IMG/VR virus record: IMGVR_UViG_3300023100_000007
Location: 1 to 28,412 of that record
From: a virus
Taxonomy: Duplodnaviria; Caudoviricetes
DNA: 28,412 nucleotides
Reading direction: 5' to 3' (one strand)
Below, in pieces: positions 4,089 through 21,318 of this stretch; within the stretch, counting starts at the first letter, position 1, and the number at the start of each line of letters is the position of its first letter. The notes under the pieces were generated by a model. That model did no database searches, had not been told where the DNA came from, and saw only the letters and a program-made list of their open reading frames with translations. The position numbers and the translations under genes are program-made.

Positions 4089-4118
4089 TTGGGCGTCTCA
4101 GTGCGTTGGTGTAGGCAT

Positions 4119-4182
4119 AGACTACCAAATTACACGATCCTATCAATATCATGCGTAGAACGATCTTTGCCATGGATGGAAC
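4119..4182 (-). promoter_or_regulatory. GTTCYA double-box promoter
   Basis: GTTCCA (4182-4177), GTTCTA (4161-4156), -35 TTGATA (4146-4141), -10 TAGTCT (4124-4119). Confidence 0.7.
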
Positions 4183-4196
4183 GATGGATTTTAGGC

Positions 4197-5225: not shown

Positions 5226-5253
5226 ATCTTACTCTTACTAGAATCCTATGCAA
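5226..5253 (-). promoter_or_regulatory. sigma70-type promoter for the RNA cluster
   Basis: TTGCAT-N16-TAAGAT; -35 lies within the inverted repeat 5241-5270. Confidence 0.55.
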
Positions 5254-5291
5254 CACCGTGCGTAGGATTCAGTGGTGCAGTGGTGGAACGA

Positions 5292-5699
5292 TCAGAGAGA
5301 CTTGCCGCCAGCCTTGGCGCGGTTCTCGGGCTTGTGGTCTGCTCGTTGCTGGTTGTACTCCAATTTAGCCAGCACAGCAGGACCAACATTTAGCTTCAGC
5401 GCACCAGCCAGGTCAAGAATGCGGATGATCGTATCGGCGAACTCAACCTCAACCATTGGCCGATCCGGAAGGTGATCGTCATTCAACCCCTTTCGGAAGC
5501 CTTCCAGCGCCTCCGACACTTCAGAATGCACTAGCGCGATCTTGCCAGCGATGAAGTGCTTACGGCCAACCTCATCCATCGCATCGTACTCATCCCACCA
5601 ACCGGACTGGCGAGCCAGCCGGTGGCAGAGTGATTGGAGGCAGACCATGCCAGCATTGGAAATATCCTTGGCCGCTTCACCAATCACTTGATTACTCAT
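5292..5699 (-). CDS. MazG-like nucleotide pyrophosphohydrolase
   Basis: IALVHSEVSEALEGFRK...EVEFADTIIRILDLAG...KLEYNQQR motif; probable start ATG 5699 overlapping the upstream stop. Confidence 0.85.
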   Translation of the reverse strand: MSNQVIGEAAKDISNAGMVCLQSLCHRLARQSGWWDEYDAMDEVGRKHFIAGKIALVHSEVSEALEGFRKGLNDDHLPDRPMVEVEFADTIIRILDLAGALKLNVGPAVLAKLEYNQQRADHKPENRAKAGGKSL

Positions 5700-9524: not shown

Positions 9525-9559
9525 CTCACTCTCCCGTTAGGCCGCTGCCCGATGACTAC

Positions 9560-9624
9560 ATACTACGCCCGTTCCATCATCGGATAAACATCACTTGTAG
9601 AACGATCAACATCATGGATGGAAC
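9560..9624 (-). promoter_or_regulatory. GTTCYA double-box promoter
   Basis: GTTCCA (9624-9619), GTTCTA (9603-9598), -10 TAGTAT (9565-9560); near-identical to the 4156-4184 copy. Confidence 0.7.
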
Positions 9625-9626
9625 GA

Positions 9627-9872
9627 TCAAATTGACATATTCTCAGCAACCAGCTCAAGCGCCTTTTCAGTCTGAACTAGTACAGTCTTGTACTCCTTGG
9701 CCTTTTGCCTAAATTCTTCGACCGTCGCCACGTATTTAGACCCATGACTTGTGGTTTCAATCCAGCGGTTGCCTGCCTGATCCTCAACGACCCATGCCTC
9801 ATTGTCCATTTCCCAGCCTTCATGGAGGACTGTGAACGTGTATATTTTCTTTCCTTCCAATTTCGTATTCAT
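9627..9872 (-). CDS. hypothetical protein
   Basis: MNTKLEGKKIYTF...; start refined to 9872, coupled to the upstream gene. Confidence 0.7.
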   Translation of the reverse strand: MNTKLEGKKIYTFTVLHEGWEMDNEAWVVEDQAGNRWIETTSHGSKYVATVEEFRQKAKEYKTVLVQTEKALELVAENMSI

Positions 9873-11014: not shown

Positions 11015-11343
11015 TTCAAAGCCTCTCCCAATTCATCAATCATCTTCTGCACCTTTGCCTGATCTACTGGCTTGGGTGGCAGCGCCTTTAGCTGCGGACG
11101 CGGCGGCATAGAATCTACGAACTGCTTAGGCGTGGGCCACTGCGTACACTCAGCCATCATGCTCAAGAAAGCGTGGCGGAACCTGGGGCCATCCATCTGC
11201 TGATCCCACACCCGATTGTGCTTTACGGCTGCGGTCCATGCCATGAGCGTGCCTTGCATCATATCCGGCGGTGGTGCCCAAGGCAGGCCGATGCACATCA
11301 ATTGCATCAGGCCGTGCTTCAGTTCTTTTTCGATCCAGTCCAT
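11008..11343 (-). CDS. putative helicase loader/inhibitor (lambda P / G39P-like position and motif)
   Basis: Directly after the initiator; ...W......AF......QWPTPKQF motif. Confidence 0.55.
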   Translation of the reverse strand: MDWIEKELKHGLMQLMCIGLPWAPPPDMMQGTLMAWTAAVKHNRVWDQQMDGPRFRHAFLSMMAECTQWPTPKQFVDSMPPRPQLKALPPKPVDQAKVQKMIDELGEALKW

Positions 11344-11734
11344 TCATTCCACCCATCTGCATTAGTGCCTGCATCTGCTTGCTAGGCTGCTGTCGTGCGG
11401 CTATCGGTGCTGCCTGCGGTACGTCAGTCCATCGCTTCTGATTGAGGTACGTCGATCCCATTGGAGCATAGCCGCGCTGCCAGCCGTCATCTTGGTCAAT
11501 CATCAGGTAGACATGCTGGATGATCGTGTCGGCCATGTCATCCAGGCTATCAGCCTTCCATCGCTTCTCAGCCTCAGCCTTACCCTTCTTGTTAGGGTAG
11601 GCGGTCCAGAAATCTCCGAAGCGCTTAGCCATCACTGGCTTCTTCTTTCGCAGGCTTGCCAATTCCTGTTCCAACTCTACTACTCGGGCCTCTAGTTCCT
11701 CGTAGCTTGGCTTGGCGTCGAATAGGTTCATCAA
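11150..11734 (-). CDS. phage replication initiator, C-terminal domain only
   Basis: FGDFWTAYPNKKGKAEAEKRW...YAPMGSTYLNQKRWTD motif; N-terminus is a short coiled coil rather than an HTH. Confidence 0.7.
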   Translation of the reverse strand: MMNLFDAKPSYEELEARVVELEQELASLRKKKPVMAKRFGDFWTAYPNKKGKAEAEKRWKADSLDDMADTIIQHVYLMIDQDDGWQRGYAPMGSTYLNQKRWTDVPQAAPIAARQQPSKQMQALMQMGGMNGLDRKRTEARPDAIDVHRPALGTTAGYDARHAHGMDRSRKAQSGVGSADGWPQVPPRFLEHDG

Positions 11735-12687: not shown

Positions 12688-12712
12688 CACACTCTCCGTT
12701 GTTGGTGAACCC

Positions 12713-12778
12713 ATCGTCCTCTTGTCTGGACGTTCGATCAACAGTCGATTTGGAACACATCGTTGCTACTTTTGGAAC
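12713..12778 (-). promoter_or_regulatory. GTTCYA double-box promoter
   Basis: GTTCCA at 12778-12773 and 12756-12751, -35 TTGATC (12741-12736), N17, -10 GACGAT (12718-12713). Confidence 0.65.
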
Positions 12779-12789
12779 ACTGCCTTTCT

Positions 12790-13196
12790 ATATTTCAGGT
12801 ATAGTTCCCCCAAGAGTGACCTAACGGGGCTTTCCCCGTAGACCATCTCCACCCACCATACCCTTAGACAATCATGGGTAGGCCAGTGTCACTAGGTGCC
12901 GATATTCGCTTCGCTCCGCGCCTTGGACCCTTTCGGGCGTCACTTGTACGCGGTCTATGCCAGTCGCTATCGGAACGCTGGTCGGCAAGCGGACGTTACC
13001 CCTACTAGCCGGTGTTTCCTGACGTGCAGCCCATGCAGGCCCATGACTAACGTGCGTCGTGACGGCAGTTAGTTGCCAGGTTCATGCGAATTGAGACAGA
13101 TAGTTGCGTTTCAGAGGGGTGGACGCGCTATAATGGCGTCGCACAACGTTGCTGAAGACAACTTGTGACAATTCGCAGGAGCTGGTAACTCGCTGC
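12790..13196 (-). ncRNA. ~400-nt structured RNA upstream of the replication genes
   Basis: ORF-free; own promoter; many hairpins (CCC-GAAA-GGG, ACGGGG/CCCCGT) and long-range helices (AGTGAC/GTCACT, TGCCGA/TCGGCA). Confidence 0.6.
13104..13134 (+). promoter_or_regulatory. promoter of an antisense RNA
   Basis: Perfect TATAAT at 13129-13134; TTGCGT 19 nt upstream (long spacer). Confidence 0.55.
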
Positions 13197-14687: not shown

Positions 14688-15160
14688 ACGGATTCTCCTT
14701 TTTTAGTGGATATTGCTTTTCGACCTATTTCAGCAAGCCTCATATTTACGGCTCTCATAGATCTATTATTTCTTTCTTCTTGACTAATTTTTAACTTATA
14801 GCCAGTTCTGTATTCTCGTTCTGAATTGGTAACTTTTGTATGGTCCCCGTGCATCAGGACTGACAAATTTTCTGGACGGTTATCATGCTTAATTCCATTT
14901 ATATGGTGGACGTCCTCATCAATTCGCAGGGGCCTACCAAGTATCCCCTCAGCTACCCATCGATGTTGCTTTACTCTTATTTGAGTTGACTCATCAATCC
15001 ATATCCTCCCCTCTATGTATCCTTTGCTATTTTTCCACCAACTAACTTCTTTTTTATTCTGGCCACCATTGTTAGCCCAAGAGCAAGGGCGGCTGCAATA
15101 CTTAGAGGTAGACCTAGCGGCATTGAAATCTTCGCCGCAGTTTTGACATTTTTTCTTCAT
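14684..15160 (-). CDS. HNH homing endonuclease with an N-terminal Zn finger
   Basis: CQNC..YCSRPC and HRWVAE...VHHINGIKHDNRPENL; visibly AT-richer than its flanks. Confidence 0.88.
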   Translation of the reverse strand: MKKKCQNCGEDFNAARSTSKYCSRPCSWANNGGQNKKEVSWWKNSKGYIEGRIWIDESTQIRVKQHRWVAEGILGRPLRIDEDVHHINGIKHDNRPENLSVLMHGDHTKVTNSEREYRTGYKLKISQEERNNRSMRAVNMRLAEIGRKAISTKKGESV

Positions 15161-15201
15161 GTTTTATCGCGGCCTTCGATGAGGCTTTAATGTTACACTA
15201 A

Positions 15202-15420
15202 TTACTTAACCAGCGTAAGGTGCCGCCGTTTAGGCTTGTCATGCGGCGACCGATTCACAATGACCCTGTAGCCGCGCTTAGTCTCTTCTGTATCTACATC
15301 GAATCCCCGATTCCTCATTTCTGCCAAGTAGGCGTCGATTTTGTGCTTGGCGACCCGTGTATTGATTGAGTCTCCACCGTGCAAAGCAAGCCAGCAGGCT
15401 GGCGGTCGTGCGTTCTTCAT
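15202..15420 (-). CDS. first leftward early gene (cro position), possibly leaderless
   Basis: 72 aa; TAGAGT -10 box ends 7 nt before the ATG; no SD. Confidence 0.6.
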   Translation of the reverse strand: MKNARPPACWLALHGGDSINTRVAKHKIDAYLAEMRNRGFDVDTEETKRGYRVIVNRSPHDKPKRRHLTLVK

Positions 15421-15427
15421 GGGGCCT

Positions 15428-15521
15428 ACTCTAGCAAGGGATTTGGGCTAGCGGTGTTCTATGTATGCAACGATCTGTTCCAAGATCATGGATTGATAGG
15501 ATGCTGGAATAGGAGGACTAT
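15428..15521. promoter_or_regulatory. divergent promoter pair with GTTCYA boxes
   Basis: Plus strand: GTTCTA 15456, GTTCCA 15477, TTGATA-N17-GACTAT. Minus strand: GTTGCA (15471-15466)-N32-TAGAGT (15433-15428). Confidence 0.65.
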
Positions 15522-15561
15522 AGACCCATCAAGACGGGCAGAGGCCCTTGGGAGAGTAGAG

Positions 15562-15846
15562 ATGACCGCATACGATGACTGGAAGACGACCAAGCAAGAG
15601 ATTGATGATGAGGCTTGGGAGGATGCGACCGAATATGTATTTTGCAGCATGAAGGAAGATGAGGGCGCTGAGGCTGTTAGCATTCTTGCTAACGCGGATG
15701 ACGTGCTGACCTGGCTGAGCCATGCTGTCGAAGTGCCGCAGCATCACCTTCACGCCTTCCGCGACCTTTGCACCCTTGCGGCCAACCTTCGTAAGCAGGT
15801 TGAGACTGAGATGAAGGCTAACCGGAGCTATCCCGATGGCGATTGA
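15562..15846 (+). CDS. hypothetical early protein
   Basis: MTAYDDWKTT...; GGGAGAG RBS. Confidence 0.75.
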   Translation: MTAYDDWKTTKQEIDDEAWEDATEYVFCSMKEDEGAEAVSILANADDVLTWLSHAVEVPQHHLHAFRDLCTLAANLRKQVETEMKANRSYPDGD

Positions 15847-15955
15847 CTGGCCGATGATGATGGATGAAGTGAAGATCGTACTTGCTGGGATCGGCATTGC
15901 CGCATGTGTGGCAGGTCTGATTGGGATTGGGTTTCTGGCTATTGGAGGGGTGTGA
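15836..15955 (+). CDS. 39-aa small membrane protein
   Basis: GGAG RBS; TM IVLAGIGIAACVAGLIGIGFLAIG; TGATG overlap. Confidence 0.55.
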   Translation: MAIDWPMMMDEVKIVLAGIGIAACVAGLIGIGFLAIGGV

Positions 15956-16239
15956 TGAAGGTTTTGATTGCAGCAGTATTGATGATGGGTATGGCGTTCG
16001 GTGCGAGCGCTAGCAACAACTGCGGGCCGGTTGCTGATCTTGCAAAGACGATCATGAAGGCTCGCCAATCTGGCATGTCAATCGTCAAGGCTATGGAGAT
16101 TGCAGGGGATGACAAGGGGGTTCAGGCGATTGTCCGGCTGGCCTACATGGAGCCGCGATATAGCAGCGAGCTGTACCGAGAGAGCGCTGCGACTGACTTT
16201 GAAACTGAGGTGTACCTGATTTGCATTGGCGGCAAGTAA
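15955..16239 (+). CDS. secreted/periplasmic protein
   Basis: Sec signal MKVLIAAVLMMGMAFGASA|; two Cys near the mature termini; GGAGGG RBS. Confidence 0.75.
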   Translation: MKVLIAAVLMMGMAFGASASNNCGPVADLAKTIMKARQSGMSIVKAMEIAGDDKGVQAIVRLAYMEPRYSSELYRESAATDFETEVYLICIGGK

Positions 16240-16290
16240 GTCTTAGCTAGTGCGACTGGCATGCGGTAAAATAGTTGTACGATGAAGATA

Positions 16291-16419
16291 TGGAGTGAAT
16301 GCGCAGGCTGATGCGCAAGAGGAAAGGCTCGATTCAGACCTTTGACTAGCCGCAGATTGGCGGACAATCCTAGTCATAAATCATTTTCATGCGTGGGATC
16401 AGTACACGCCACTCCACCA
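16291..16419 (+). ncRNA. tRNA-like RNA with a loop-loop pseudoknot and CCA end
   Basis: TGGAGTG/CACTCCA plus CCA; TGCGCA-GGCTGA-TGCGCA and GCGTG-GGATCAGTA-CACGC arms with complementary loops. Confidence 0.7.
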
Positions 16420-16436
16420 TTAAGAGAGCAATAGAG

Positions 16437-17339
16437 ATGAATGAAGCAATTGAAGCGCAGCCGAAAGAGCAGCGCATGGCCCCTTATCAGGCGGCTATTA
16501 AAAAGGCAGAGGATAAGTTCCGCGAAGTAGCCGAAAAGTCGGTCAACTATGACCGTGAGTGCATCTTTGCCATGCAGGCATTGATGAAGACAGACTTTGC
16601 CATGCAGACGGCGAACAAGAATCCTAAGTCTGTTCACTTGGCGATGATCAACGTTGCGTCCACTGGCCTGACGTTGAATCCGGCCAATGCTTACGCTTAC
16701 CTGATCCCCCGAGATGGAGCTATCGTCCTAGATATTAGCTACAAGGGCCTTATCAAGATCGCAACGGACACCGGCTCTATCCGTTGGGGTCGTGCTGAGA
16801 TTGTGTACGAAAGCGATACGTTCGAGTACCACGGCCCAGCCCGCGAGCCGGTTCACAAGTGCAATCCGTTCAAGCGTAAGGATGACGATCAAATCATCGG
16901 TGTTTACTGCATCGCTAAGACCAGTGACGGTGACATTCTGACGGAAGTCATGGGCGCAGATGAGCTTGAGAAGATTCGCGGTAAGTCCATGAGCTACGCC
17001 AAGAAGAAGTCCGGCCCGTGGGTTGAGTGGTTTGAGCAGATGGCCAAGAAGGCCGTAATCAAGCGAGCTAGCAAGACGTGGCCTTACACCGAGCGCGCTG
17101 AGAAGCTGAACATTGCCGTTGAAATGGCTAACGAGGCTGAGGGCGGATATGACCTTGAGGCCGAAGCAGTGAAGTTGGTGAGCCAGGACCAAGCCGCAAC
17201 CATTCGTGACCATATCGAGGCATCTGGCATTGATGCCCCTAAGCTGCTTGGAATCATTGGCGTTGATGCTATTGAAGCTATCCCCGCCAATCGATTCACT
17301 GAGGTTGTTCAGACCATCAAAGAGGCTTCTCAGGCGTGA
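16437..17339 (+). CDS. recT: RecT-family single-strand annealing protein
   Basis: GLTLNPA...AYLIPR...ISYKGLIKIA...PWVEWFEQMAKKAVIKRASKTWP; start refined to 16437. Confidence 0.92.
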   Translation: MNEAIEAQPKEQRMAPYQAAIKKAEDKFREVAEKSVNYDRECIFAMQALMKTDFAMQTANKNPKSVHLAMINVASTGLTLNPANAYAYLIPRDGAIVLDISYKGLIKIATDTGSIRWGRAEIVYESDTFEYHGPAREPVHKCNPFKRKDDDQIIGVYCIAKTSDGDILTEVMGADELEKIRGKSMSYAKKKSGPWVEWFEQMAKKAVIKRASKTWPYTERAEKLNIAVEMANEAEGGYDLEAEAVKLVSQDQAATIRDHIEASGIDAPKLLGIIGVDAIEAIPANRFTEVVQTIKEASQA

Positions 17340-17983
17340 GGATTCTAGACTGTGAGCAATACTCGCCTGAGTGGTGGGCGATTCGGGCTGGGGTTCCTAC
17401 AGCGTCAAATGCGGATCGAATCCTGACAGCAGCGGGCAAGCCTTCATCTAGTCAATCGGCTTACATGGCCGAACTGATTGATGAGATTGTTCGTCCGCGT
17501 GATGAGCGACCAGCGGATGAGCAGTCTTTCAGCGGCAACCGACACACCGAGCGTGGCAATGAGTTGGAGCCGAAGGCTAGGGCATGGCATAGCCTAGTAA
17601 CGGGGCATGAAATCAAAGAAGTCGGTATGATCTTCCGCGATGATGGTCTAGTAGCTTGTTCGCCGGATGGACTCATTGTTGGTCCTGATGGCGTGCCGCT
17701 GGGTGGCGGAGAGTACAAGGCCCCCGAGGGAAAGAAGCACGTCCTATGGATGATCGAAAACAAGCTGCCGGATGAGCATAAGCAGCAGGTTCATTTCTCG
17801 CTAGCGGTAAGTGGCTTGCCGTTTTGGGAGTTCGTAAGCCACTGCCCAGGTTACAAGCCGTTCCGTATCCGCGTAACACCCGACGACTATACAGCCAAGA
17901 TGGCGGCTGAGATTGACGCGTTTGTCATCAAGCTACAGGCAGCAAAAGAACAATTCATCGACTATATCAACGCAAGGAAATGA
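17336..17983 (+). CDS. YqaJ/lambda-exonuclease family 5'-3' exonuclease
   Basis: EQYSPEWW..RAG.PTAS...RGNELEP.AR...ACSPDGL...EYKAP...QVH. Confidence 0.9.
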   Translation: MRILDCEQYSPEWWAIRAGVPTASNADRILTAAGKPSSSQSAYMAELIDEIVRPRDERPADEQSFSGNRHTERGNELEPKARAWHSLVTGHEIKEVGMIFRDDGLVACSPDGLIVGPDGVPLGGGEYKAPEGKKHVLWMIENKLPDEHKQQVHFSLAVSGLPFWEFVSHCPGYKPFRIRVTPDDYTAKMAAEIDAFVIKLQAAKEQFIDYINARK

Positions 17984-17984
17984 A

Positions 17985-18293
17985 ATGGCACAAGTAGTTC
18001 AGCGGTTCAACGTAGCAGCAGGCAAGCCCTATCAGACCCGTGACGGCCAGGATAAGAAGCAGTGGATCAATGCAGGCCGCGCGGTCCAATGGGATGACGG
18101 CGGAATTAGCATCGAACTGACGGCGGTTCCCGTAGGTAATTGGTGGGATGGAAAGCTTTCGCTGTTTGTGCAGGAAGAGAAGCAGCAGAGCGGGAATAGT
18201 GGTGGCGGTCAGCGCCAGCAGGCTCCACAGCAGCGTCAAGCGCCCCAGCATAACAGTGGTGGCAGTTTCAACGATGATGACATTCCTTTCTAA
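17985..18293 (+). CDS. ssb: single-stranded DNA-binding protein
   Basis: Y.TRDG..KKQW, Gln/Gly-rich linker, C-terminal DDDIPF. Confidence 0.85.
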   Translation: MAQVVQRFNVAAGKPYQTRDGQDKKQWINAGRAVQWDDGGISIELTAVPVGNWWDGKLSLFVQEEKQQSGNSGGGQRQQAPQQRQAPQHNSGGSFNDDDIPF

Positions 18294-18316
18294 CATCATA
18301 GAATATTGAGAGTAAA

Positions 18317-18496
18317 ATGACCAAGCAGAAGAAGCCGAAGACTGGCGATGTTGTGGGGTGGATCGTTCTAGGGCATGGCTATGACAGGCCTATCTTTGCA
18401 TCACGAGCATCAGCTAGAGCTGCTATTAAGCAATATTCCCAAGTACACCAAGCGTGGGGAAAGGCTAGGCTTGGCCGAGTATTGCTAGCCAAGTGA
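18317..18496 (+). CDS. 59-aa basic hypothetical protein
   Basis: MTKQKKPKTGDVVGWIV...; GAGAG RBS. Confidence 0.55.
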   Translation: MTKQKKPKTGDVVGWIVLGHGYDRPIFASRASARAAIKQYSQVHQAWGKARLGRVLLAK

Positions 18497-18498
18497 TC

Positions 18499-18564
18499 GT
18501 TCCATTTCCGTAAACGATCTGTTCCACAAATGATGGCTTCATTGTTCCTAGTAATGGGTATGAT
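18499..18564 (+). promoter_or_regulatory. GTTCYA double-box promoter
   Basis: GTTCCA at 18499 and 18521, N32, -10 TATGAT at 18559. Confidence 0.7.
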
Positions 18565-18594
18565 GGAGCCATCAATCACTAGGAGGGAGTAAAG

Positions 18595-19071
18595 ATGACT
18601 ACTGATACCAAGGCTGTGGCGCGGTGGGATATTGATTGCATGCGCGCCCAAATGGACACGTTCGATGATGGGCGCTATGTCGAATTCACATACCACGAGC
18701 GGGTGGTGGGGGATGTATGGGAGATCACTCGTGAAATTCAAATTCAGAGTGATAAATATTGGAATGAGCTACGCCAACTACGTGCCACTTTGGAGGATCT
18801 GAATGAAGCCCAAGCAGTGGGCGATGGCACGGTCTCCGGCTCCCTGCTGCACTGGCACCAGCGTGCGCTTGCCGCAGAGGCCGCCCTCGCTGCGAGTCGC
18901 GCCGAGATTGATGGGTTTCGCTCTGTCTTACAGCAGATTGAGGTAATGGCTCCGGTCCATGGGCTTAACCCTCTGGCAAAGATCAGTGACCCGCAGCACG
19001 TCAAGGTTTGCTGGAATACGCAGCTTGCCGCCAGATCAGCACTTGCCGCAATGGAGAAGGGAAATGTCTGA
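18595..19071 (+). CDS. hypothetical coiled-coil protein
   Basis: 158 aa, AGGAGGGAG RBS. Confidence 0.75.
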   Translation: MTTDTKAVARWDIDCMRAQMDTFDDGRYVEFTYHERVVGDVWEITREIQIQSDKYWNELRQLRATLEDLNEAQAVGDGTVSGSLLHWHQRALAAEAALAASRAEIDGFRSVLQQIEVMAPVHGLNPLAKISDPQHVKVCWNTQLAARSALAAMEKGNV

Positions 19072-19642
19072 GGCCAAGATCAGTGAGGCGGTGCCTATCG
19101 CATGGGTAGACATCGCAAACTGGCGTGACGAACTAGAAGCAAACGAATGTTTCTTCACCGACTATCAGGACGAGGATACTGTTCCCGTCTACCTCCACCC
19201 GCAGCCCGCAGAGCTGGCCGAGCCGCAGGACACGTCTTCTTGGTCGCTGCATGACCGCGTGGAATTCGCCCTGCGCGACGCTGGATTTGACCTAGATGAA
19301 GCCTCGCGGATTGCGTTGCAGGTTGATGGCAAGCAGCAGGTTGGCGAGGTGCAGGATGAGCGCGAGCGGTTTGAGGCTTGGGCTACCTCCAAAGGCCTGA
19401 ACACAGTGCGCTCTAGCGAAGAGATTGACAGGTACGCACACACCGACACTTTCTATGCATGGCAGGGCTACCAAGCCGCCCCGCCAGCGCAGGGCATCGA
19501 CCTGGGGCAGTTACGGCAGGCTGTTGTTCACTGGTATGCGGACGCGGACAACGCGAACACAAACCCGGGTTGGGTGCGCGCAGAAGCCGACCGCCTTCTG
19601 GCCCTGATCGACCATCGCGATGCAGCGCCGGGGGTGGAGTGA
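19064..19642 (+). CDS. mosaic accessory protein (PIAW..PVY and ERERFEAW modules)
   Basis: Start refined to MSEAKIS; modules typical of phage Ead/Eaa-like proteins. Confidence 0.7.
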   Translation: MSEAKISEAVPIAWVDIANWRDELEANECFFTDYQDEDTVPVYLHPQPAELAEPQDTSSWSLHDRVEFALRDAGFDLDEASRIALQVDGKQQVGEVQDERERFEAWATSKGLNTVRSSEEIDRYAHTDTFYAWQGYQAAPPAQGIDLGQLRQAVVHWYADADNANTNPGWVRAEADRLLALIDHRDAAPGVE

Positions 19643-20358
19643 ACATAAGCGAACGCATCCGCAGCCTGATTAGCCATGCTATGACGGCTGCGGAGATTCA
19701 TGAACTCATGCCGGATGTTGACGTTAAGATGATCCGTGGATGCATTCAGCCTATGGTTGCCTCAGGCGTTATGCATCGAGTTGGCGATAAGAAGCCATAC
19801 AAGTACCAGCTAGGCCGTGGCCTAGAAATTCACAACAGAGGTAGGAATTTGAACATCACTCAACAGGTTCGTGAGTACATTCGAGGGCATGCGCCGATCA
19901 GTTCAGATCGAATCGCTATGGGCACTGGATTGGCGCTTAAGGTAGTTCGCTCTCGTGTCAGCGAGATGAAGAAGCGAGGCATGCTTGTACGCGATGACAA
20001 CGGCCTTTACTCGATGGGCCGTGAGCTTATCTGCCGACCGAGCAAAAGGACTGAGGAAGATAAGCGCCGGGATGCACGAGATGCATCAAGGCGTCGGCGC
20101 GCGCGGGAGCGTGCGGCGCGCGAGTCTAAGCGCCCCAAGGAATCCACGCCCATGACGGTTGTGAAGGTCAAAGAGAAGGCAGATCCTAAGGCTGTGAAGA
20201 CGCAGACAGTGGATGAATGGCTGGCAGAAGGCGGCGTTATCGACCGATCCCCTACTCCGCTGCCCTTTGAGCGCCTGAGCCGGGATGATATCGACATGTC
20301 CTATCGTGCTGCATCGACTGCGCAGTTGCGGACCACTCGGACTTATCTTGTCGGGTGA
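19639..20358 (+). CDS. tandem winged-HTH protein with a SutA-like C-terminal motif; putative transcription activator
   Basis: GTG start overlapping the previous stop; MTAAEIHE..V...GV and ISSDRIAMGTGL...VRSRVSEMKKRGML wHTHs; Arg-rich helix; TVDEWLAEGGVI. Confidence 0.7.
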   Translation: MNISERIRSLISHAMTAAEIHELMPDVDVKMIRGCIQPMVASGVMHRVGDKKPYKYQLGRGLEIHNRGRNLNITQQVREYIRGHAPISSDRIAMGTGLALKVVRSRVSEMKKRGMLVRDDNGLYSMGRELICRPSKRTEEDKRRDARDASRRRRARERAARESKRPKESTPMTVVKVKEKADPKAVKTQTVDEWLAEGGVIDRSPTPLPFERLSRDDIDMSYRAASTAQLRTTRTYLVG

Positions 20359-20366
20359 GATGCAGT

Positions 20367-20410
20367 GTTCTAATTTTGGTGTATACAGAGGTTGGTAGGT
20401 GTGTCAATCT
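20367..20410 (+). promoter_or_regulatory. GTTCYA single-box promoter
   Basis: GTTCTA 20367-20372, N32, CAATCT 20405-20410, inside the inverted repeat GGTTGGTAGG/CCTACCAACC. Confidence 0.5.
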
Positions 20411-20437
20411 AGTCCTACCAACCAAGAGGAAAACCAC

Positions 20438-20581
20438 GTGAAGAAGATCATCATCGCAATTTCCATCTGCCTTTCGCTTGCCTCCTGCGCCAGCATGCGT
20501 GAATTCAATAAGCCTGAAGTTGGCGCAGATGGAAGCCGAGAGTTTCGCGTCAGTTCCGCTATTGGGCGCTGCCGCTGCTAA
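20438..20581 (+). CDS. short lipoprotein (possibly truncated; exclusion-lipoprotein-like position)
   Basis: GAGGA RBS, GTG start, MKKIIIAISICLSLAS|C lipobox; stop overlaps the stop of the convergent tail gene. Confidence 0.65.
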   Translation: MKKIIIAISICLSLASCASMREFNKPEVGADGSREFRVSSAIGRCRC

Positions 20582-21318
20582 GCAGTAAAGTTCAATGGAA
20601 CTTCACTAAGGTCAACGATGAATATCGTTGCATTCTGAGGACCCATTGTCGCGCCACCAATAGGATAGGTGTTTGAAAGTAGGATTTGGCTATTTATTGG
20701 GGAGCGTGACCCATAAATCCTATTATCGCTAGTCATATGAAAATGATCTGCCGACATTGTGCATCTGTCTTGAGATACTGAATTGTAATAAAACCTAGGG
20801 GATGGAATGGCAATCCCAATTTTGGTACCAACAGAATATTGTCCAATAAGAATTGGCAAACCTGTAATTTCTGGCAGCGTAATTACATGAAGAACGCGAA
20901 GGCTTTTCCTTCTGGAGTCGTAATATACGGCTCCATTTTCATTTTTCAGCCTTAGCCCTACAGGTCCTGAAGCTGGCGTAGTCAATGCGTTGAATGTGTA
21001 ATATTCAAGAGACTTGTTGGCCGCTTGATTTGATGCATATATGTAACAAGAAATATTTGACTGGACAACTGTAAATCCACTTATAGGCTGAACGTTGTCA
21101 TTTACGTATCTGATGACGTGCAGATTAGTAGTTGCATTAGTGGATGCCAAAAACCCACGCGCTCCTCCATTTACCGAAGGTGGCGACCCGCCAGTCGATC
21201 CAGGTAAAAATGTGCCAGTATCCAAAACACCTGACTTTGCCAGTTGCAAATTTGTATATCCATCTGCAATCTGAATAAGTCCAGTAGATTGGTTTCTGAC
21301 CCTAAAGCCAACAGCCAT
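20578..21318 (-). CDS. tail-tip accessory / receptor-binding-associated protein
   Basis: MAVGFRVRN...IQI and GLRLKNENG.VYYDS repeats typical of post-J tail proteins. Confidence 0.75.
   Translation of the reverse strand: MAVGFRVRNQSTGLIQIADGYTNLQLAKSGVLDTGTFLPGSTGGSPPSVNGGARGFLASTNATTNLHVIRYVNDNVQPISGFTVVQSNISCYIYASNQAANKSLEYYTFNALTTPASGPVGLRLKNENGAVYYDSRRKSLRVLHVITLPEITGLPILIGQYSVGTKIGIAIPSPRFYYNSVSQDRCTMSADHFHMTSDNRIYGSRSPINSQILLSNTYPIGGATMGPQNATIFIVDLSEVPLNFTA

Follow-up and report, generated by a model that had tools for sequence, protein, structure and literature searches.

What is a phage protein that consists largely of two predicted winged helix-turn-helix (wHTH) domains doing with a C-terminal peptide resembling the segment by which the small Pseudomonas protein SutA binds RNA polymerase (RNAP)? 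The question is raised by P0001, the product of a 239-codon gene in a 28,412-nucleotide virus sequence (Caudoviricetes; IMG/VR record IMGVR_UViG_3300023100_000007, positions 1 to 28,412), hereafter the window. The original prediction, which was made from the sequence of this window, had P0001 as a site-specific activator that recruits RNAP to promoters with tandem GTTCYA boxes. In our analysis, the observation at its core is confirmed and the interpretation is partly supported. The reading toward which we tentatively lean is that P0001 is a DNA-bound phage transcription regulator with a tail that would dock to the beta protrusion of the host RNAP in the manner of the SutA RNAP-binding domain (SutA-RBD); the features on which the argument turns are collected in Table 1.

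The tandem wHTH architecture, the basic, Arg-rich helix and the motif TVDEWLAEGGVI are all there, judging from an AlphaFold2 (AF2) model, Foldseek comparisons, composition and conservation. The model, which was built on a 26-sequence alignment, has a mean predicted local distance difference test score (pLDDT) of 74 and a predicted template modelling score (pTM) of 0.31, a value low enough to leave the relative placement of the domains undefined. It consists of two helix-helix-helix-strand-strand units (residues 3-58 and 73-126), which we denote WH1 and WH2, a long helix (139-162) and an otherwise extended tail that includes a short helix (191-196). When compared to the PDB with Foldseek, the model retrieves tandem winged-helix proteins, namely a chain of an RNA polymerase III subunit (the best match, E 4.2e-5), ScpB, SelB and AlkX/YcaQ, and when compared to BFVD, it retrieves uncharacterised phage winged-helix proteins exclusively. 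The two units of the model, the Foldseek results and the match to PHROG 1687 ('MarR family', E 1.3e-8) together identify the winged helix-turn-helix fold. In Pfam, no winged-helix family reaches its gathering score for P0001: AlkZ-like obtains E 1.3e-3 and 18.9 bits against a cutoff of 25.9, HTH_24 obtains 12.3 bits against 21.9, and PaaX and RepL (E 0.098) both remain under their cutoffs; in NCBIfam, there is no match for P0001.

A second PHROG match, to family 142 ('Ren-like exclusion protein', E 2.2e-6, residues 70-131), suggests a different role, namely that P0001 is an exclusion or immunity protein of the Ren type that takes no part in the transcription of the phage's own genes. We consider this very improbable. 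The match is confined to the generic WH2 domain, and the gene keeps both its sequence and its position within a clade of phages, of which one, CUB19, is described in the available part of its report as devoid of lysogeny-associated genes (PMC9612306). A single pattern-based scan of 185,579 species genomes also gave no relative, which is weak evidence for absence from prophages given that the patterns covered the N-terminus only.

The conservation profile of the family draws attention to the tail. Mean column identity is highest there (residues 188-218), ahead of WH1 and WH2, and falls to 0.43 in the basic helix; in the region that links WH2 to the tail (residues 129-187), 22 lysines and arginines are found against 11 aspartates and glutamates. 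Within WH1, the predicted recognition helix (29-42) contains the invariant residues R33, Q37 and M39.

Could the conserved tail, then, be related to SutA? The available part of the study that defined the SutA-RBD (PMC9300723) places this domain at residues 57-90, with a helix (57-76), the glycine pair G78-G79 and, pairing with the beta protrusion, a strand (81-84), and reports that binding is impaired when K60, R64, L67, M71, F74, L75, V81 or I84 is replaced by alanine or when bulky residues are introduced at G78 or G79. In the alignment with the phage tail, V191, W194, L195, G198, G199 and I201 correspond to M71, F74, L75, G78, G79 and V81 of SutA, that is, 6 of the 10 interface residues are alike in kind, and the matched positions are the ones whose substitution hurt binding to the beta protrusion (PMC9300723, same part). 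The likeness between P0001 and SutA of Pseudomonas aeruginosa can be condensed in the pattern hydrophobic-x2-[F/W]-L-x2-G-G-x-[V/I], which in SutA amounts to the end of the helix, the glycine turn and the beta strand, all situated in the groove of the RNAP beta protrusion.

For a comparison at the level of profiles, natural SutA genes were gathered with a DNA pattern back-translated from 'EEFLxRGGKV', for which 120 loci were listed out of about 640 estimated in the collection. The claim that EEFLxRGGKV is a SutA motif holds: 114 of these 120 loci, nearly all from Pseudomonas and its kin, encode proteins of 100-116 amino acids with an acidic N-terminal tail and ...EAKQKERDALARAMEEFLARGGKVQEVEPNVV..., and the sequence equivalent to the phage motif in natural SutA proteins is AMEEFLARGGKVQEVE. 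With hhalign, the tail of the P0001 family aligns with the C-terminal half of SutA over 18 columns, pairing AVKTQTVDEWLAEGGVID with DALARAMEEFLTRGGKVQ, at a probability of 57.5% (P 1e-4, score 24.5), whereas the controls, namely the reversed SutA profile and 20 column-shuffled versions, reach scores of 5-11 and probabilities of at most 0.5%.

Further comparisons draw on a broader set of proteins. A HMMER search with the P0001 family profile against 1.84 billion representatives yielded 190 proteins at E<=1e-3 which, about ten double winged-helix representatives aside, are mostly 140-210 amino acids long and match profile positions ~74-207, i.e., WH2, the linker and the motif. These proteins form a broad, unnamed family with one wHTH domain, a basic, K/R-rich linker and a tail of the type 'TVEEFLARGGxIxxLP', and share with P0001 the WH2 domain, the linker and the C-terminal motif (HMMER E 1e-10 to 1e-5). 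Unlike P0001, they have a single winged helix and a tail that is nearer to SutA (F rather than W, and R-G-G-K), and they stop 12-35 residues past the motif, without the IDRSPTPxPFERL extension of P0001. A regular expression for the motif near the C-terminus, [ED]x[FWY][LIVMA]xx[GT]x, is matched by 146 of the 205 proteins collected, one of which (P0192) is a false match. In some members, the string EEFLARGGKVQ is identical to that of SutA. Sub-threshold matches to the Pfam model of the SutA-RBD, PF20661, were obtained for 16 of the 24 members sampled (E 5.6e-5 to 0.13, 12-23 bits, below the cutoff of 29.3), always starting from profile position 14 or 15 and always on the motif. In hhalign, the broad family aligns with SutA over 34 columns (96.1%, P 2.8e-9, score 38.8) and the target tail aligns with the broad family over 36 columns (98.3%, P 2e-14, score 62.5), with the proviso that the broad-family segments were chosen by the motif expression, so that the match is favoured.

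As to its provenance, the broad family is metagenomic, located on contigs of up to ~42 kb, and carries no name beyond 'hypothetical protein'; a tblastn search with one member, P0111, gave no match among named phages. The ESM Atlas clusters nearest to P0001, to be taken as leads only, are unnamed Pseudomonadota proteins of ~160-169 amino acids (scores 0.82-0.87), and in one of them, with 293 proteins of ~160 amino acids (score 0.82, likewise a lead only), PF20661 is found on 17% of the members. One broad-family protein, P0099 (368 amino acids), has, fused to the wHTH domain, linker and a FLANGG tail, a segment reminiscent of PRA isomerase (Pfam PRAI, E 0.098, a long way under threshold), so that the tail may be combined with other N-terminal modules.

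Several lines of evidence weigh against the docking hypothesis, and all of them have to be set against these profile comparisons. The direct tests on P0001 are negative. PF20661, with its gathering score of 29.3 bits, gives no match to P0001 at E<=10, and no match at all when the window is scanned in six frames. Neither the family profile nor the last 69 residues, searched against PDB sequences, brought up a SutA chain at E<=10, and none is among the 50 Foldseek PDB matches listed. The absence of a SutA profile or PDB match is an outcome that the original prediction had itself named beforehand as counting against it. A hidden Markov model (HMM) built from 101 distinct SutA sequences does align with P0001 on the motif, but the score is only 5.6 bits (E 0.3 among 205), compared with 25 bits (E 2.5e-7 among 205) for the broad-family member P0111; a homolog search with the motif region of another protein, P0148, recovered only the query itself among 4 candidates and provided no link to SutA. 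The aligned stretch is only ~12-18 residues long: K60, R64 and L67, in the first half of the 20-residue SutA helix, have no phage counterpart, the position of I84 is occupied by S204, and G199 is replaced by K or Q in 3 of the 26 aligned homologs. In the AF2 model, the helix extends over 6 residues (191-196) and gives way to an extended chain, whereas the SutA helix of 20 residues is followed by a short beta strand, and the flanking region is basic in the phage protein and acidic in SutA. A subgroup of the broad family has T-G where SutA has G-G. Finally, the phage tail continues for ~20 conserved residues past the SutA-like part (IDRSPTPxPFERLTxxDI), with no counterpart in SutA, and 6 of the 120 listed pattern loci encode unrelated proteins with the same type of octapeptide.

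These findings, above all the failure of P0001 in every direct SutA test, the shortness of the alignment, the occurrence of the motif in unrelated proteins and the additional conserved residues, are what one would expect if P0001 were a winged-helix regulator, be it a repressor or an activator, whose C-terminal peptide binds a partner other than RNAP (a phage protein, a host hub protein or P0001 itself) and whose likeness to SutA is a short convergent motif. We regard this alternative as rather unlikely. Mere convergence does not readily account for profile-profile scores well over those of the reversed and shuffled controls, for sub-threshold PF20661 matches in two-thirds of the relatives sampled that keep the same register throughout, or for the coincidence of the matched positions with interface residues of SutA defined by experiment. 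Of the predicted SutA-like tail, what stands is the resemblance to the C-terminal half of the SutA-RBD, above controls; neither the N-terminal half of the SutA helix nor an acidic tail is present. We conclude that there is a motif-level relationship to this half-domain, probable in the broad family and plausible in the subfamily of P0001, whereas P0001 is not a SutA family member: SutA is a protein of ~105 amino acids that has no DNA-binding domain and whose acidic, disordered N-terminal tail enters the polymerase cleft, and P0001 has two winged helices, a basic linker and the ~20-residue conserved extension, and fails the Pfam model.

If P0001 is a DNA-bound regulator, where on the phage genome would it bind? 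The original prediction pointed to tandem GTTCYA boxes, and the pairs are real, although the single box is not enriched in the window (30 matches against 20.8 +/- 4.9 expected). Five pairs with a spacing of 21-22 bp, at 4156 (-), 9598 (-), 12751 (-), 15456 (+) and 18499 (+), lie inside one conserved element of ~85 bp; the reversed pattern, used as a control, has no match, and the paired pattern itself recurs in the phages Silvergun, SOVA965, CUB19 and Kintu. In these four related genomes, nhmmer matches to the element (up to E 0.13) number 4 in W01 and 6 in W02, while W03 and W04 have 5-6 apiece. At least one match is also present in 11 of the 13 IMG/VR loci that encode a relative of P0001 (34-56% identity), the two loci that lack it being short or one-sided. 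From 41 copies, the consensus reads GTTCcat..tG.aa..ga.tGTTC.A...aTgaTGTTgAtc.gat, followed by 16-17 bp, an nAnnAT hexamer, ~7 bp and CCAtCA. Read by eye, it would be a sigma-70-type promoter with the -35 hexamer TTGATC, a -10 hexamer such as TAGTAT or TATGAT, a start at CA and the boxes at about -48 and -70. In the element at 18487-18574, the putative hexamers are CTTCAT and TATGAT, with a start, inferred by eye, near 18571, and in that at 15444-15532 they appear to be TTGATA and GACTAT, with a putative start near 15528. A generic scan for sigma-70 promoters and terminators in the region 15000-21000 turned up 4 promoter-like sites where 5.3 were expected, no more than chance would give, and missed the elements. 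Two further observations concern individual copies: the type of copy at 18487 has a third GTTCC within the spacer between -35 and -10, and a very weak match (20359-20421, E 3.5) overlaps an inverted repeat downstream of the P0001 gene that is described below.

The elements stand ahead of the blocks for recombination, replication, NinB/RusA and lysis and so give the non-structural half of the genome its organisation. Between phages whose proteins now share 35-50% identity, orthologous copies of the element have remained almost the same. The arrangement of tandem winged helices along with direct repeats of ~22-bp period recalls iteron systems, and it would be compatible with P0001 being a replication or recombination accessory, that is, an origin- or iteron-binding protein or a replisome organiser with two winged helices, as in plasmid Rep initiators. 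The location of the gene within the RecT/exonuclease/SSB operon and weak PHROG matches to replication initiators, a DnaD-like loader and a replisome organiser (E 0.02-0.16, with replication families at 0.02-0.07), along with the Pfam RepL match (E 0.098), point in the same direction. All these matches are, however, far below significance, the product of another gene (11150-11734) matches replication-initiation families far better (E 1e-19), and no Rep initiator is found among the 50 Foldseek matches listed. Moreover, instead of clustering as in an origin, the repeats are spread over the genome, each set in front of a gene block and accompanied by -35/-10-like hexamers, and we hold such a replicative role to be improbable.

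Returning to the hypothesis of a transcription regulator, the six ~85-bp elements are the most attractive targets of P0001, but this assignment is the weakest link in the argument and, on balance, a doubtful one. In its favour, the boxes lie upstream of the -35 hexamer, where activators bind, and the recognition helix of WH1 (R33, Q37, M39) stays constant together with the boxes, in contrast to WH2 and the remainder of the protein, where identity falls to 34%. The gene is the third open reading frame (ORF) downstream of the element at 18487-18574, and altogether two such putative promoters lie upstream of it. The co-occurrence of gene and element, which the original prediction had proposed as a check, does obtain, in the four genomes and in the 11 of 13 loci mentioned above, but it fails to single out P0001, since no fewer than four further phage proteins persist throughout this set of genomes, among them an HTH_37 protein (in 4 of 4 complete related genomes) and three small proteins of unknown function bordering the divergent early region, where two small ORFs occupy 15202-15420 and a stretch ending at 15846; and given that the phages are kin, co-occurrence carries little weight in the first place. 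A priori, the HTH_37 protein is an equally good candidate for reading the boxes. Nor is the proposed fit of two wHTH domains to two boxes a natural one: at a spacing of 21-22 bp, the boxes are two helical turns apart, a distance that winged helices joined by ~12 residues would not readily match, so that it would take two molecules, or a separate domain for each box.

With these reservations, the following scheme can be envisaged. The winged helices would bind phage DNA, and the basic linker of ~60 residues would let the DNA-bound molecule reach the polymerase at a nearby promoter, where the tail (V191-x2-W194-L195-x2-G198-G199-x-I201) would take the place of M71, F74, L75, G78, G79 and V81 of SutA in the hydrophobic groove of the beta protrusion, resulting in higher polymerase occupancy. 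If the box assignment holds, the gene, downstream of two box promoters as it is, would feed back positively on itself. The SutA-like tail and the strongly basic linker would also suit a host-takeover factor that holds on to the host RNAP by its tail and to DNA, without sequence preference, by its linker and winged helices, and so inhibits or redirects transcription globally rather than through the GTTCYA promoters; nothing ties the protein to the boxes, and phage proteins that shut off the host by binding RNAP, such as T7 Gp2 and Xp10 p7, are a known kind. This we deem a slim chance, given that the invariant polar residues R33 and Q37 in the recognition helix of WH1 suggest specific reading of DNA and that a gene placed last in its operon, downstream of two box promoters, would be expressed late for a shut-off factor.

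The favoured scheme has partial parallels among known regulators. CarD binds the beta1/protrusion domain of RNAP and also contacts DNA, and thus, as proposed for P0001, couples an anchor on the beta protrusion with a DNA-contacting module at initiation; it differs in that the anchor is Tudor-like, the contact with DNA is sequence-nonspecific and the protein is a cellular global regulator. No match to CarD in sequence or fold was seen for P0001, with no comparison aimed at CarD having been made. Phage lambda cII and T4 MotA are phage activators that read repeats beside a weak promoter and, again as proposed here, are DNA-binding proteins that contact the host polymerase at phage promoters with direct repeats. 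They contact sigma or alpha and bind at or around -35, whereas the boxes in question are situated near -48 and -70, with the beta protrusion as the proposed point of contact; no homology of P0001 to either of these proteins came to light.

Table 1. Features of the window discussed in the text, with positions, strands and basis of assignment
Feature	Position	Strand	Basis or remark
P0001 gene, 239 aa	19639..20358	+	stop codon 20356-20358
Winged-helix domain 1 (WH1), residues 1-60	19639..19818	+	AF2, alignment invariants, column identity 0.71
Winged-helix domain 2 (WH2), residues 72-128, more variable	19852..20022	+	AF2; weak Pfam HTH_24, PaaX, AlkZ-like; PHROG 1687; column identity 0.50
K/R-rich helix and linker, residues 135-166	20041..20136	+	AF2 helix 139-162; 15 K+R in 32 residues
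Conserved C-terminal peptide TQTVDEWLAEGGVIDRSPTPLPFERLSRDDI, residues 188-218	20200..20292	+	top conservation, 0.80
SutA-RBD-like motif TVDEWLAEGGVI, residues 190-201	20206-20241	+	translation
Promoter element upstream of three-gene unit ending with the P0001 gene (putative)	18487-18574	+	nhmmer E 6.9e-15, alignments; boxes 18499-18504, 18521-18526
Promoter element heading RecT/exonuclease/SSB operon (putative)	15444..15532	+	nhmmer; boxes 15456-15461, 15477-15482
Promoter element heading replication-gene block (putative)	12701..12790	-	nhmmer; downstream genes match PHROG replication-initiation families
Promoter element before NinB/RusA block (putative)	9549..9636	-	nhmmer
Promoter element before endolysin/spanin block (putative)	4109..4194	-	nhmmer
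Weaker sixth copy of the element	5226..5295	-	nhmmer E 3.6e-4, enlarged profile
HTH_37 protein, 178 aa	5692-6228	-	domain E 5e-12; kept in all four complete related genomes
Recombination operon: RecT, YqaJ-type exonuclease, SSB-like protein, unknown proteins, P0001 gene last	~15450-20358	+	
Block with HNH endonuclease, replication proteins, NinB, RecA-dependent nuclease, RusA, pyrophosphatase, HTH_37 protein, endolysin, spanin	15420 down to 400	-	
Tail genes	28412 down to 20578	-	window layout

The gene itself is an open frame throughout, translated without an internal stop, and begins with a GTG codon that overlaps the stop codon of the preceding ORF (GTGA). This start is right because the homologs begin in register with MNISERIRSL, an N-terminus seen in 25 of the 26 aligned sequences, the remaining one lacking the first 14 residues. 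A word-indexed protein search returned 55 homologs of 209-244 amino acids, all from metagenomes or phages and labelled 'hypothetical protein' apart from one 'predicted transcriptional regulator'; a precomputed TrmB-type wHTH domain (PF01978) is recorded on 11 of them. Relatives are encoded in ten named phage records, the closest in Acinetobacter phage Silvergun (77% identity) and the others in eight Stenotrophomonas phages (36-49%) and Xanthomonas phage Kintu (34%).

The window, which represents an estimated ~58% of a complete genome, has a lambda-like layout, and the P0001 gene closes the RecT/exonuclease/SSB operon, an arrangement shared by a clade of siphophages of the Stenotrophomonas/Xanthomonas type. 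In all four annotated relatives examined (Silvergun, SOVA965, CUB19 and Kintu), the homolog likewise stands at or close to the end of the recombination operon and converges on tail-tip and fibre genes. The G+C content is 51-53% in all five genomes, that is, the window and the four relatives, whatever the stated host (Stenotrophomonas, Xanthomonas or Acinetobacter).

The surroundings of the gene yield some further observations. The ORF directly upstream (19073-19642, +) has no relative in the 17 related sequences searched, and its slot is variable, being occupied in Silvergun and Kintu by an HNH endonuclease (listed for this slot at 2116-2661 in L001 and 5326-5979 in L016). Just 3' of the stop codon, between the convergent gene sets, there is a perfect 10-bp inverted repeat, GGTTGGTAGG ... 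CCTACCAACC, at 20390-20423, the fold of which is no stabler than that of shuffled sequence (z -1.34). Between the P0001 gene and the end of the tail-fibre gene lies an ORF of 47 codons (20438-20581, +) whose product starts with VKKIIIAISICLSLASC, a lipobox-containing signal of the lipoprotein type (Pfam LPAM_1, E 0.0042, under the cutoff). By its position beside receptor-binding genes, it recalls superinfection-exclusion lipoproteins such as T5 Llp.

What would the proposed relationship mean? In the available parts of the published descriptions, SutA is presented as a protein without characterised homologs that is restricted to Pseudomonadales and Alteromonadales (PMC9300723; bioRxiv 10.1101/423384). 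We found no paper in the open-access literature that links SutA to phage winged-helix proteins, and the word 'phage' is absent from a 2026 preprint on SutA. The most far-reaching form of the hypothesis, which we consider unlikely as a whole, is that phage winged-helix proteins of a large, unnamed family have at their C-terminus a SutA-type anchor for the beta protrusion, which serves as a portable module for recruiting polymerase, and that the double winged-helix version is a dedicated activator of the ~85-bp promoter family, driving the non-structural half of the genome including its own gene. Should this be the case, SutA would be the cellular relative, devoid of a DNA-binding domain, of a widespread phage activator tail, and if the docking peptide of SutA is indeed found at the end of phage DNA-binding proteins throughout a large family, activators in general would have a landing site in the beta protrusion. 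These Stenotrophomonas and Xanthomonas phages, some of which are studied for therapy, would then possess a simple, testable switch made of one protein and one promoter family.

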